In this document: in pieces, positions 4,189 through 39,991 of the stretch
Numbering within the stretch: position 1 is the stretch's first letter
Layout of the letters: each line of letters begins with the position of its first letter
Source: Escherichia phage LAMP
Reading direction: 5' to 3' (one strand)
DNA length: 64,000 nucleotides
Sequence record: MG673519.1
Program-made: the position numbers and the translations under genes
Notes under the pieces: generated by a model
Database searches by the model: none
What the model was told of the DNA's origin: nothing
Seen by the model: the letters and a program-made list of their open reading frames with translations, nothing else

Positions 4189-4941
4189 ATGGCAATGCCA
4201 GATGTTCAATACCCCATCAATACCTATGGGTGGCTAAAGAAGGCCGTGGCCCTCTGGGCAGATAGGGACGATGACGAATTTGTTAATCAAATTCCAAACT
4301 TTATTAACTTTGCAGAGAAAGAGATTTATCGTAACTTACGCATCCCTCCTCTGGAAAAAGAAGTGTATTTAGATATTAAAGATGGAGTAGCTTACATTCC
4401 TCCTGATTACTTAGAAGCTCAATGGATGATGAGAGCCAAAGATGGTACAATCTTCCAAGTAACATCTCCTGAAGAGATTAGCTATCGTAGACAGCATGGA
4501 ACAATTAATCCATCTCATTGGAATAACCAACCTGTTAACTTTGCTCGTTTCGGCAGTCGTTTCATTTTCTACCCTAGCATCGAAGCAGACACTCCGTACT
4601 ATCCTGATGATGGAAGTCCTTTGATTCCAGCAGAAAACTCAGTGATTCTTAGTTATTATGCAGACCCACCGGAGTTTCATGAAGATACAGACACTAGTGC
4701 TATTCTTACTATCGCACCAGAGCTTCTTCTGTATTTCACCCTACGTCATGCTTGTCTGTTTGTTCAAGATGATAACGGTGTTCAGAAATGGTCAGCATTA
4801 GGAAAAGCTATCCTTGATGAAATGGTAGAACAGAATAAGAAACAAGAGTACTCAGGTTCACCTATCGCAATTCCGAATAACATGACTCGACTTCAGAGCA
4901 GCTTGCCTGATATTTATGGTATTCGTACTTCTCGTGTATAA
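4189..4941 (+). CDS. virion structural protein (putative adaptor or tail protein)
   Basis: 250-aa ORF with strong RBS, between capsid and tail fiber genes. Confidence 0.4.
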   Translation: MAMPDVQYPINTYGWLKKAVALWADRDDDEFVNQIPNFINFAEKEIYRNLRIPPLEKEVYLDIKDGVAYIPPDYLEAQWMMRAKDGTIFQVTSPEEISYRRQHGTINPSHWNNQPVNFARFGSRFIFYPSIEADTPYYPDDGSPLIPAENSVILSYYADPPEFHEDTDTSAILTIAPELLLYFTLRHACLFVQDDNGVQKWSALGKAILDEMVEQNKKQEYSGSPIAIPNNMTRLQSSLPDIYGIRTSRV

Positions 4942-36736: not shown

Positions 36737-37093
36737 TCACACTGGTTGATTGCTCTTGTTAGTGCCCACACTTTCATTATTCTTCTCTTTATGAAGTCTA
36801 TAAACAGCTGTCGCCATGCAAGCAACAGCTTCATTGTGTGGGAGATGCATCCCTGTAGAACCATCCCAATCTTTGAACTCATTGTCAAAGACTCCAGTAG
36901 GTTCTGGATATAGAGCTTGCAACTCAACCAAATCATTAGCAACTTGTTGCCATTTATCATCAGACCAGATAGGGTCATCCAACCAGTAATACAAATAGGA
37001 ATGGATGATCAATTGCCTTCTGTGCCGATTAATTACTTCAGCGGGACTTATCTCACTTCCATTTGAAGTCCTAAATGTATTACTGTCAATCAT
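36737..37093 (-). CDS. small protein resembling NAD-dependent DNA ligase domain Ia
   Basis: RHRRQLIIHSYLYYWLDDPIWSDDKWQQVANDLVELQALYPE parallels the LigA N-terminal [31 protein letters not shown] segment. Confidence 0.35.
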   Translation of the reverse strand: MIDSNTFRTSNGSEISPAEVINRHRRQLIIHSYLYYWLDDPIWSDDKWQQVANDLVELQALYPEPTGVFDNEFKDWDGSTGMHLPHNEAVACMATAVYRLHKEKNNESVGTNKSNQPV

Positions 37094-37095
37094 GA

Positions 37096-37752
37096 TTAAT
37101 TATTCCAAGTAGTTGATAAGGCTTTCCAAGAGATAGGATAAAGTTTCTTCATTTCTTCATCAATAGTTTGTGCAAACAGTCGGACCTCATACTGAGCGTG
37201 CTCTGACAGACGTTGACGGCACACATCTGACCAGCCATATAGAGAGCCAGTCCACACCCACTCAGTGATCATCCCCTGAGGAAGAACAAATCGAGCTTGC
37301 TCTGGTGCAACAAATTCAATCAACTTATCATATGCTGCTAGAGAGGATTCATATGCATCGTTAATCAGCATTAATGCTTCAGCTCGTTCTCCATCGATGA
37401 GTTGAATCCCTGAACCTGCATGGAGGTCCGAAGGTCTCGCAAAAATCTCTTTAGGGATGAAGACTTCAACTGCTCCATCTTTATACCGACGGGACATTTC
37501 GTTCCACGAGAATCCAACCTGATGCTTGCCCAGCTGTCTCGCAATTGCGATAGGTGCTTTGCATCGGAAACTAACTTGTGGATGTCGGAATGGAGTAACA
37601 TGCTTTTCTCTTGCGAGGAAGTTGATGAGACGTTCATCACGTTCATTTAAATCACCTTCACGGGTTACGCCAAAGGAAACTCGAGCTGCGTTTACTACGC
37701 TACGATCACTTCCCATAGCTTCGATTAATGTTGCTTGTAGTTGTTCATTCAT
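37096..37752 (-). CDS. thyX: flavin-dependent thymidylate synthase
   Basis: AARVSFG, TPFRH, KAPIAIARQ and SWNEMSRRY match ThyX signature regions. Confidence 0.8.
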   Translation of the reverse strand: MNEQLQATLIEAMGSDRSVVNAARVSFGVTREGDLNERDERLINFLAREKHVTPFRHPQVSFRCKAPIAIARQLGKHQVGFSWNEMSRRYKDGAVEVFIPKEIFARPSDLHAGSGIQLIDGERAEALMLINDAYESSLAAYDKLIEFVAPEQARFVLPQGMITEWVWTGSLYGWSDVCRQRLSEHAQYEVRLFAQTIDEEMKKLYPISWKALSTTWNN

Positions 37753-38231: not shown

Positions 38232-38289
38232 ATATTCATATCCTTATAAAGAGAAAACCCCGTCTATTCCTAGACAGGGCTTGAGTTTT

Positions 38290-38853
38290 TTAGTAAGACA
38301 CATCACCACTTGAGTGGGACATGTTGCTCTTGACGAAGTAGCAATACTTGCCAAGACCTTCATTGATTTCTTGAAGCATACTTTGATCGACTGGATAAGT
38401 GGCTAAATCGCCATCAAACTCATCCATCTTCTCAATAATACACATCAAGGTCATGCACATATCAGAGAGCATACCGTCCATGTCTAGATCAGCGTTACCC
38501 TCTGAGAACCAAGCATGAGAGAGGTAGTTAGCTGCTGTAGCATCCACTTTAACACAGTGGTAACGCATACGTTCAGCAATACGATCTCCTACTTGTCGTG
38601 CGTAATCTTCCAGCTCGTCAAACATACCATGAACACCCTGAAATCCTGCACCAGAGACGTTCCAGTGGTAGTTTTTAGCTTTGATGTGCAAGAGTTCCAT
38701 ATTAGCTTGTAAGCAGCTCAGGATGTGTTCTAGGCTGTTTCCGCTAATCATGCCTTGCATTGTTTCAAGGCGAGAGATTGAAAGCTCAGACCGGTCTAAC
38801 ATGCTGTAGCTGTCACGACCAATCTCAGGTAAATCAAAGACATTCTTATGCAT
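38290..38853 (-). CDS. Dps-like ferritin-fold protein
   Basis: NYHWNVSGAGFQGVHGMFDEL...DRIAERM and C-terminal YFVKSN resemble Dps family. Confidence 0.6.
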   Translation of the reverse strand: MHKNVFDLPEIGRDSYSMLDRSELSISRLETMQGMISGNSLEHILSCLQANMELLHIKAKNYHWNVSGAGFQGVHGMFDELEDYARQVGDRIAERMRYHCVKVDATAANYLSHAWFSEGNADLDMDGMLSDMCMTLMCIIEKMDEFDGDLATYPVDQSMLQEINEGLGKYCYFVKSNMSHSSGDVSY

Positions 38854-39175
38854 TTGGGTTTTCTCCATCAAGTTCAACTGAGTTAGCAACGTTACGTGCA
38901 ATATTGTCCATTACCTGCTGGGTAATTACGATGCAGTTCTGTGGGTCTACTGACTTAGAACGCCCCATTTCTGGGTCATACACCTTAACACGCTTAGCAG
39001 TTGAACCTGTAACCTGAAGAACCTTCAACAGATATCCCTGATTACCGATAGACCAAGCAACAACATCACGATTCTTGATAAAGCGACCAAGCATATCACG
39101 ATGATAAAACTGTTGCATCACCTTGGATTTTGTAATCTCTTCAGTGGGCGGGGCCACTTTACTCAAATCTAACAT
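38846..39175 (-). CDS. hypothetical protein
   Basis: 109-aa ORF; TATACATTT promoter-like motif 40 nt upstream. Confidence 0.4.
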   Translation of the reverse strand: MLDLSKVAPPTEEITKSKVMQQFYHRDMLGRFIKNRDVVAWSIGNQGYLLKVLQVTGSTAKRVKVYDPEMGRSKSVDPQNCIVITQQVMDNIARNVANSVELDGENPNA

Positions 39176-39457: not shown

Positions 39458-39991
39458 TTACACACCTTTAGATGCAACTACACCTTCAGAATTATTATAA
39501 CGACCTTTCACTGCATAGGAATGCTCCCCTGCATGAGAGTGCTCAAACATGACCATCTGACCAACACGCATACCAGCACGAACTCGTAAGCTGTGATGTT
39601 TGGTCACATTATGGAATTCAAACGTCAACTTACTGTTATTAAACCCGCCGTCTGCCCACCCGGCGTGAAGATGGTTCAAACCACAACGAGCCATAGATGA
39701 ACGCAGGACAAACAGGCTTGAAATGTTATCTGGAAGGTTAAACTCCTCCATAGAGTGAGCCAAGAAGAACTGACCCGGAGTGATAACCAAACCCTCTTCA
39801 GGAATTTTTACTTCCTTCCACTGAAGATTCTCTTTCGCATCAATATCAACGATGCCATCAGCCTGTTCTTCAACAAGGATAGTATCACCAATACGGATAT
39901 CCACACTAGCAGCGTTAACATACTTATGCTCCGCATCCAGATAGCCATTGTCAATTACATCATGCAGTTCAATACTTCCTAGTAAACTCAT
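39458..39991 (-). CDS. dcd: dCTP deaminase family protein
   Basis: VDIRIGD, LRSSMARCGL, AGWADGGF, RAGMRVGQMVMFE match the Dcd/dUTPase-fold family. Confidence 0.75.
   Translation of the reverse strand: MSLLGSIELHDVIDNGYLDAEHKYVNAASVDIRIGDTILVEEQADGIVDIDAKENLQWKEVKIPEEGLVITPGQFFLAHSMEEFNLPDNISSLFVLRSSMARCGLNHLHAGWADGGFNNSKLTFEFHNVTKHHSLRVRAGMRVGQMVMFEHSHAGEHSYAVKGRYNNSEGVVASKGV

Follow-up and report, generated by a model that had tools for sequence, protein, structure and literature searches.

Genes of the Dps family have already been described in the phages related to phiEco32. In RefSeq the product gp67 of phiEco32 (phi32_67, YP_001671812.1) is named 'DNA binding protein' and described in a note as 'member of the Dps family', an annotation reportedly present since the publication of the genome in 2008. 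In phage SU10 the corresponding gene, CDS67, is a middle gene that 'contains a DPS domain' and is one of just eight CDSs common to all five C3-morphotype podophages then sequenced (PMC4281155). Dps homologues are also reported as known in Kuravirus phages in the paper on Proteus phage Privateer, with their function unverified (PMC7881722). Our literature search found no paper that addresses the function of such a Dps in the phiEco32-like group. Outside this group, it has been suggested for DPS-like genes of gut phages ('Gratiaviridae' and Lactobacillus phages) that they limit the oxidative damage suffered during infection (PMC8008677).

The gene reported here lies in a 64,000-nucleotide stretch of Escherichia phage LAMP (MG673519.1), referred to as the window. 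The DNA of the region is 98.3% identical to that of Escherichia phage JacquesWildberger_Bas92 and about 94% identical to those of phiEco32 and SU10, and on this identity the window belongs to a Kuravirus, that is, a phiEco32-like prolate podophage. Bas92_0051 (XPK41599.1) has exactly the same protein sequence (100% identity), and the identity is 99.5% to phiEco32 gp67 and 97.3% to the SU10 orthologue. Both phiEco32 gp67 and Bas92_0051 agree with the gene in the window in length (187 aa), in the overlap with gp68 and in their neighbours, although the block upstream is shorter in the window and in Bas92, where one small ORF stands for phi32_69-71 of phiEco32. The initial annotation, made from the sequence alone, had identified the product as a Dps-like ferritin-fold protein. 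This is correct, and since the gene is orthologous to the annotated phiEco32 gp67 and Bas92_0051 it was already known. What is added here is the correction of the 'DNA binding' and 'integrase' labels attached to these genes, the definition of a phage-specific clade and the recognition of a conserved gp68-like partner. It is rare for a ferritin-family gene to be, as here, a core gene of a strictly lytic phage group and to be locked into the module for dNTP synthesis and replication.

The ORF encodes a protein of 21.2 kDa and runs on the minus strand from the ATG at 38853-38851 to the TAA at 38292-38290 (ORF list and reading of the sequence); no strand had been named in the initial annotation. 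The features of the locus are collected in Table 1. The TAA stop of the gp68-like ORF and the ATG of the Dps gene share an overlap of 8 nt (ATGCATAA). A TTG at 38901, which would give a protein of 203 aa, was considered as the start and rejected, as it falls within the gp68-like ORF. Moreover, it is the ATG at 38853 that is preceded by a GGAG, the MH(N/K)N start is kept in all the homologues of the long clade, and the 21.2 kDa of the SU10 product agrees with 187 aa.

Table 1. Features of the Dps locus of phage LAMP (positions in the window, all on the minus strand)
Feature	Position	Strand	Basis
Dps-family mini-ferritin CDS, 187 aa	38290..38853	-	ORF list, PF00210, PHROG 3636, PDB Dps matches, identity to Bas92_0051/phiEco32 gp67
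N-terminal extension, ~45 aa, Kuravirus-type clade only	38719..38853	-	Alignment, AlphaFold, charge counts
Helix A/B segment NYHWNVSGAGFQGVHGMFDELEDYARQVGDRIAERM, aa 61-96	38566..38673	-	BLASTP alignment to E. coli Dps; codons read from sequence
Ferroxidase codon H63	38665-38667	-	Read from sequence
Ferroxidase codon W64	38662-38664	-	Read from sequence
Ferroxidase codon H75	38629-38631	-	Read from sequence
Ferroxidase codon D79	38617-38619	-	Read from sequence
Ferroxidase codon D90	38584-38586	-	Read from sequence
Ferroxidase codon E94	38572-38574	-	Read from sequence
Shine-Dalgarno-like GGAG	38863..38866	-	Sequence reading; 9 nt 5' of Dps ATG, within the end of the gp68-like ORF
gp68-like ORF, 109 aa, phrog_10984	38846..39175	-	ORF list; directly 5' of Dps
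12-bp hairpin and U-rich tract	38255..38282	-	Terminator scan, RNA fold; begins 8 nt past the Dps stop
Thioredoxin, 91 aa	37768..38043	-	Pfam PF00085, 2.1e-13
ThyX, flavin-dependent thymidylate synthase	37096..37752	-	Pfam PF02511, 8.9e-44
dCTP deaminase	39458..39991	-	Pfam PF22769, 8.7e-34

The hairpin that follows the gene has a centroid energy of -17.8 kcal/mol, with an MFE of -18.4 kcal/mol for 64 nt and a z score of -3.0 (RNA fold), and is probably either an intrinsic terminator or a 3' stabiliser of the mRNA. A scan for sigma-70-type promoters around the Dps gene gave 6 matches, compared with 9.9 in shuffled sequence, and none of them was directly 5' of the Dps or the gp68-like gene; on the coding strand the nearest matches lie some 2.4 kb upstream, at about 41,250-41,400. 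The late-promoter motif of SU10, TAATGTAT, occurs 6 times in the window against 3 expected, with no occurrence on the minus strand upstream of the Dps gene. Neither scan thus gave a convincing promoter close to the gene. In phiEco32 and in the metagenomic locus L007, G+C-rich complementary segments of other stem sequence are found in the same place as the hairpin when the alignment is read by eye.

The family assignment is carried by several searches. The match to the Pfam Ferritin-like family PF00210 covers only aa 55-108 and has an E value of 2.5e-7; its 31.1 bits exceed the gathering score of 24.5. PHROG 3636 is matched with an E value of 2.6e-55 from aa 35 to 180 (profile positions 2-149 of 149). 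In the PDB, phmmer found 59 sequences at E<=1, which were almost exclusively Dps proteins. Dps2 of Mycobacterium smegmatis ranked first (2.6e-9), and MrgA of Bacillus subtilis and Dlp-2 of Bacillus anthracis were also among the best. At the level of sequence the similarity to Dps is far beyond chance, and thousands of Dps proteins are found with a profile built from the phage clade. The predicted structure is in agreement with these matches. An AlphaFold2 monomer model built on an alignment of 109 sequences has a mean pLDDT of 89.1, with helices at 41-65, 71-98, 125-146 and 154-176 and a short helix at 107-112 in the BC loop. A short helix in this loop separates Dps from other ferritins. When the model was compared with the PDB by Foldseek, Dps chains made up 48 of the 50 top matches, with target-normalised TM-scores of 0.8-0.9 and rmsd values of 1.1-2.2 Å. 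The product, as judged from its sequence and its modelled fold, is a genuine Dps-type mini-ferritin subunit of a phiEco32-like E. coli phage, with a putative activity. The HMM search and the alignment of ferroxidase ligands that had been proposed as checks of the first identification both bear it out.

The ligands themselves are found where they would be expected in a Dps protein. By BLASTP, H63, W64, H75, D79, D90 and E94 align with H51, W52, H63, D67, D78 and E82 of E. coli Dps; the numbering of the E. coli sequence used reproduces the positions of the literature. In the alignment of the 109 homologues (38 of the phage clade and 71 cellular Dps) five of these residues, H63, W64, H75, D90 and E94, are invariant (109/109), and position 79 is Asp throughout the phage clade and Glu or Asp in the cellular proteins. 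The pattern predicts a ferroxidase site between subunits, in which H63 and H75 would come from one subunit and D90 and E94 from its two-fold partner, together with D79 and W64. The initial annotation had assigned both the central segment NYHWNVSGAGFQGVHGMFDELEDYARQVGDRIAERM and the C-terminal YFVKSN to the region of the di-iron site. For the central segment this was right, as all the iron ligands are in it; YFVKSN (residues 172-177, corresponding to WFIESN in E. coli Dps) is instead the end of helix D, outside the site, and is a signature of the Dps family.

Around this conserved site the phage proteins show differences of their own. The Trp of helix D (W144 in Listeria) is replaced by Tyr172, with Tyr in 38/38 proteins of the phage clade, whereas all 71 of the 71 cellular Dps have the Trp. 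One aromatic residue is thus exchanged conservatively for another, at a position that does not define catalysis. With D121, D126 and D130 of Listeria Dps as the reference for the three-fold pore through which iron enters, two of the three residues are replaced in the phage clade as read from the alignment: D126 by P154 (Pro in 32/38 of the clade) and D130 by S158 (Asn or Ser in 38/38). The Listeria sequence used was checked solely by the agreement of its numbering with the literature. Other acidic residues of the phage protein, D156, D147 and D149, are near the positions of P154 and S158 and may contribute to the pore. Together with the Tyr of helix D these replacements suggest that the kinetics of iron uptake or the handling of radicals may differ in the phage protein. 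The protein also has 5 Cys and 15 Met. In the clade with the long N-terminus the means per protein are 5.5 Cys and 12.7 Met, compared with 0.3 and 6.3, respectively, in cellular Dps, and the positions of the Cys are individually conserved in part.

A copy of Dps in a phage had been called unusual in the initial annotation. This holds for phages at large, as a homologue was found by tblastn in just 136 of 50,697 phage records, but not within its own lineage, where it is a core gene. A few weak matches, in records that match Dps but not the gp68-like protein discussed below, include two Streptomyces and two Synechococcus phages. The DPS-like genes of gut phages mentioned above belong to other lineages and hosts, and they were absent from the tblastn matches obtained at 1e-5 with the window protein. 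Proteins of the Lactobacillus phages LP65 and Semele were among the fold matches in BFVD, which also holds several further phage-encoded entries with the Dps fold.

A recent capture of the gene from the E. coli host was considered and rejected because of the distant scores and of the separate phage clade. E. coli Dps and the phage protein match in phmmer with an E value of only about 0.1-0.2, BLASTP aligns just 41 residues of them, and the protein fails the NCBIfam equivalog model of enterobacterial Dps, NF006975 (34.5 bits, cutoff 114). These comparisons of sequence mark the window protein as a divergent member of the Dps family and not as an orthologue of the host Dps. There is a gap in the profile scores between the proteins in phage context (125-340 bits) and cellular Dps (86 bits or less), and the first protein below the gap, P0050, is found among bacterial housekeeping genes. 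In a neighbour-joining tree of 38 phage and 71 cellular sequences, the latter being the nearest neighbours only, the phage clade was monophyletic with a bootstrap of 50/50. Every ligand is kept in the 38 sequences of this clade, which suggests purifying selection in phages. Among the profile matches, a protein of 1156 aa with 20 weak matches (P0124) was discarded as a translation artefact of a tandem repeat. Other long proteins that contain Dps (P0185, P0224, P0175 and others) carry no Pfam domain other than Ferritin, with the one exception of a DUF6321 in P0224, and these and similar long proteins fall outside the phage clade.

The gene had been placed in a block of nucleotide metabolism, and the neighbours ThyX, thioredoxin, dCTP deaminase and PhoH confirm this setting. 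In the direction of transcription the block on the minus strand consists of the genes for a primase/helicase, a DNA polymerase exonuclease subunit, a nucleotidyltransferase, dCTP deaminase, the gp68-like protein and Dps, followed by a 59-aa ORF (phrog_9296) and the genes for thioredoxin, ThyX, a stand-alone protein with a ligase Ia domain and PhoH. A module with the order dCTP deaminase, thioredoxin, gp68-like, Dps and ThyX/ATP-cone/NrdD recurs in distant phages, namely Salmonella phage 7-11, Cronobacter phage GAP52, Proteus phage P59, Aeromonas phage LAh_9 and three metagenomic contigs (L007-L009), the Dps proteins of the distant relatives being only 31-47% identical to that of the window. 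Thioredoxin adjoins the gp68-like gene in GAP52, P59, 7-11, L008 and L009, and the ThyX gene immediately precedes Dps in 7-11 and L009 and comes after it in L007. Genes of the anaerobic ribonucleotide reductase (RNR), or ATP-cone fragments, are beside Dps or within about 2.6 kb of it in GAP52, P59, LAh_9, L007 and L008.

The most constant companion of the Dps gene is the gp68-like gene. It is immediately 5' of Dps, abutting or overlapping it, in the Kuravirus phages, GAP52, P59, LAh_9, L007 and L008, and in 7-11 and L009 it stands farther upstream of Dps, by 1.3-2 kb, and comes after thioredoxin. Its product is 31-37% identical to that of the window in five of the six distant loci and 72% identical in L007. 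By tblastn a gp68-like gene was found in 130 of the 50,697 phage records, with a genus profile almost that of Dps (136 records), a co-occurrence that is confounded by shared ancestry. A functional link is argued rather by the fact that adjacency and translational coupling are kept at 31-37% identity, and the gp68-like gene is a probable partner gene of Dps. The protein had no match in Pfam or NCBIfam. Its model (pLDDT 68.5) is a small β-barrel of five strands with flanking helices, for which Foldseek gave no significant match in the PDB, the best of the generic small β-barrels having an E value of 0.014. The conserved, coupled gene is a concrete lead to how the phage Dps differs in its action from the bacterial Dps.

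Taking the ligands, the fold and the setting together, we consider it fairly probable that the gp67 orthologue acts with the gp68-like protein as a dodecameric sink for Fe2+ and H2O2 during phage DNA synthesis and protects by chemical means. As in the characterised members of the family, twelve subunits would form a hollow cage, the two-fold interfaces of which would carry the di-iron ferroxidase centres. There Fe2+ would be oxidised, preferentially with H2O2, and the Fe3+ would be stored inside the cage, so that both Fenton reagents would be removed. The two roles named in the initial annotation, protection of replicating DNA from oxidative damage and sequestration of iron, are accordingly putative. 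As the cage would be made alongside the enzymes of phage replication and dNTP synthesis, it could shield the nascent phage DNA as well as the redox-sensitive enzymes, that is, thioredoxin-dependent steps and ThyX and, in the relatives, the oxygen-sensitive NrdD/NrdG. The gp68-like small β-barrel would probably co-operate with the cage. Some points speak against such a sink. Among them are the replacements in helix D and at two pore positions described above. The need for it in a lytic phage with a short latent period is not obvious, and the link to NrdD would hold by analogy only, as no RNR gene was found in the window phage.

The same evidence of ligands and fold, together with the persistent adjacency to NrdD/NrdG/ATP-cone genes in GAP52, P59, LAh_9, L007 and L008, could also be explained if the protein took over the iron of the cell. 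It would then deprive iron enzymes or defences of the host, or feed Fe-dependent enzymes of dNTP synthesis (host NrdB or the Fe-S protein NrdG), and the prevention of Fenton damage would be secondary. The lack of an own RNR in the window phage weighs against such a takeover. It rests moreover on the same chemistry as the detoxification of peroxide and iron, and as an explanation in its own right we regard it as very unlikely. As a core gene within the replication module, the gene lends itself to the question of whether phage DNA synthesis is limited by the chemistry of iron and peroxide.

The label 'DNA binding protein' is used for these proteins by PHROG 3636 and in GenBank records. 'Integrase' is found as the gene name in many GenBank records and is a propagated error; such a label could falsely flag phages that are candidates for therapy as temperate. 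A cage that binds or condenses DNA, on the phage genome or on the host nucleoid and perhaps with the gp68-like protein as its adaptor, would agree with the first label. It would also agree with the closest solved relative, MsDps2, which is a nucleoid-forming DNA binder (PMC2779847), and with the N-tails of the short-tailed phage clade (7-11, GAP52 and P59), which have a net charge of 0 to +3. The gp68-like protein is in addition slightly basic, and its barrel resembles SH3, Tudor and KOW folds, which are often nucleic-acid-binding, but these matches are not significant. The label is inherited from the family name, with no assay behind it. To bind DNA, a Dps needs a tail that is both mobile and positively charged, or else a surface of positive charge; the Dps of Listeria, Dlp-1 and Dlp-2 of B. 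anthracis and the Dps of Agrobacterium tumefaciens have neither and do not bind DNA (PMC1874666). The window protein falls outside the DNA-binding subset defined in this way: it has a pI of 4.72 and a net charge of -15, its N-tail (aa 1-45) has a charge of -3 and no Lys cluster, and its C-tail (178-187) has no K or R at all. In the 24 homologues with a long N-terminus the charge of the N-tail averages -1.4, and no tail is net positive. For an acidic protein that lacks a Lys-rich tail the label is unsupported by the sequence, and a cage acting on DNA directly seems unlikely to us. The strong acidity and the lack of a tail rich in Lys or Arg make chemical protection rather than the coating of DNA probable, and what can be read from the residues favours an iron and peroxide sink over a physical coat.

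The N-terminal extension begins with a conserved MH(N/K)NxFDLP in the phage alignment, and an extra helix is predicted in it at aa 19-37, a stretch with a pLDDT of 59-74. The Dps homologue of Privateer was found by mass spectrometry in virions purified on CsCl (PMC7881722), which is a real hint of an association with the virion, and as such a hint of a location other than that expected of a sink acting during DNA synthesis. The protein might thus be carried in or on the prolate capsid, where it would guard the packaged DNA from iron or from where it would enter the next host. The presence of the gene in all the C3-morphotype podophages compared (PMC4281155) and the conserved extension of 45 aa in the Kuravirus-type proteins are consistent with this, as are the Dps-fold domains that BFVD holds inside 'Prohead protease' proteins of uncultured phages, which would fit a targeting to capsids elsewhere; no paper on a link between prohead protease and Dps was found in our literature search. 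The extension cannot be a general packaging signal, as the Privateer homologue does not have the long N-terminus.

The gene is moreover part of the middle (replication) cluster and outside the late structural genes. [quoted passage not shown] With such a sample the result speaks for expression of the orthologue and not for its incorporation in the virion. As for Privateer, a simple alternative is that a stable, iron-cored cage of 250 kDa could co-band with the phage in CsCl; spectral counts for Dps were not found in the supplements of that paper. A virion-associated Dps seems on balance unlikely. A more elaborate form, in which a phage-adapted nanocage associated with the capsid has the gp68-like protein as its obligate partner and accompanies the virion or is directed to the capsid, comparable to the ferritin-like cargo of encapsulins, we hold to be decidedly improbable. 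It would draw on the acidic extension of 45 aa, a possibly remodelled three-fold pore, the change from Trp to Tyr in helix D and the enrichment in Cys and Met. If true, it would explain both the detection of Dps in the CsCl-purified virions of Privateer and the Dps-fold domains of the 'prohead protease' proteins.

The preferred reading of the protein as an iron and peroxide sink can be set against the Dps systems that are known. The best matches in sequence and structure are M. smegmatis Dps2 (PDB 2z90 and 4m35) and B. anthracis Dlp-2 (1jig), which superpose on the model over 134-143 residues with rmsd values of 1.1-2.2 Å. They have the subunit fold and the pattern of ferroxidase ligands in common with the phage protein at an identity of only 23-26%, and the phage protein differs from them in an additional N-terminal segment of ~45 aa, which is acidic and in which a helix is predicted, in the Tyr of helix D and in its 5 Cys and 15 Met. 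With E. coli Dps (1dps) the ferroxidase residues match, and the C-terminal helix reads KFLWFIESN in the host protein and KYCYFVKSN in that of the phage. E. coli Dps binds DNA through an N-tail rich in Lys (K5, K8 and K10), whereas the tail of the phage protein is acidic. The Dps of Listeria innocua (Fri) keeps the ferroxidase ligands and has no basic tail, like the phage protein, and for these two reasons it is the best functional analogue, a detoxifier of iron and peroxide that does not bind DNA. By analogy, the likeness in function would thus be greatest to the Dps proteins that do not bind DNA, such as Listeria Fri and the Dlp proteins of B. anthracis.

The gene encoding the Dps-family mini-ferritin carries the name 'integrase' in many Kuravirus genomes deposited in GenBank, examples being those of phages IME267 (MZ398243), DE5 (MW741821), EK5 (PQ805429), ES17 (MN508615) and KM01 (PV018827). 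Since Ferritin-like is the sole Pfam domain of this protein, the label is, judged by sequence, an annotation error that has been propagated. It could falsely mark as temperate the lytic Kuravirus phages that are candidates for therapy.

The Kuravirus-type Dps clade contains on average 5.5 cysteines and 12.7 methionines per protein, whereas the corresponding means are 0.3 and 6.3 for the 71 cellular Dps proteins of the same alignment. A D-M-C-M stretch (aa 131-134) is also conserved in helix C of the Kuravirus-type proteins. A thioredoxin gene is found near the gene encoding this Cys- and Met-rich Dps.

The features found in the vicinity of the Dps gene, in phage LAMP and in related phages, are listed in the table.

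Features of the Dps region in phage LAMP and ATP-cone genes of related loci
Feature	Location	Strand	Remarks
ORF with ligase Ia domain	LAMP 36737-37093	(-)	118 aa; 'DNA ligase' in phiEco32 and Bas92 annotation
Hairpin	LAMP 38255-38282	(-)	12 bp and U-rich tail; directly 3' of Dps stop
Dps gene	LAMP 38290-38853	(-)	'integrase' in many deposited genomes
gp68-like ORF	LAMP 38846-39175	(-)	109 aa; phrog_10984
'Nucleotidyltransferase'	LAMP 40001-41365	(-)	454 aa; so named in phiEco32 and Bas92 annotation
ATP-cone gene	L004 (Proteus phage P59) 3859-4194		downstream of Dps
ATP-cone gene	L005 (Aeromonas phage LAh_9) 3929-4201		downstream of Dps
ATP-cone gene	L008 (metagenomic contig) 4469-4765		downstream of Dps

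The hairpin (centroid -17.8 kcal/mol; MFE over 64 nt -18.4 kcal/mol; z -3.0) is likely a terminator or an mRNA 3' stabiliser within the middle operon. By eye, the alignment places G+C-rich complementary segments of differing sequence at the equivalent position in phiEco32 and in a distant metagenomic relative.

The gp68-like protein, predicted from modelling to be a small SH3/Tudor/KOW-like β-barrel, is better conserved than Dps (72% versus 47% identity to metagenomic locus L007). Its gene is confined to the phage groups that also carry Dps, invariably with the Dps and thioredoxin genes nearby. Directly downstream of Dps, several related phages encode a stand-alone ATP-cone protein of approximately 90-110 aa. 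The P59 annotation calls it an anaerobic RNR fragment, a hint that allosteric dNTP sensing could be tied to the Dps module.

The product annotated as a DNA ligase consists of the N-terminal Ia domain of NAD+-dependent ligases alone (PF22745, 2.5e-35) and, being too short, is by its length not a ligase; it could instead regulate host LigA or serve as its adaptor. The Pfam scan gave no match at E<=0.01 for the 'nucleotidyltransferase', the SU10 counterpart of which is described as a class II CCA-adding-enzyme-like nucleotidyltransferase domain (PMC4281155).

Three predicted structures in BFVD from uncultured Caudovirales (A0A6J7XDU5, A0A6J7WPK9 and A0A6J7WIS1; 333-763 aa), all annotated 'Prohead protease', have one domain that can be superposed on the Dps model, with E 3e-5 to 7e-4 and, in the two best cases, rmsd 1.7-2.8 Å. 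The presence of a Dps-fold domain in proteins so annotated suggests that other phages may target Dps domains to the capsid. The literature search yielded no paper that connects prohead protease with Dps. Capsid-targeted Dps domains of this kind would recall the ferritin-like cargo of encapsulins.
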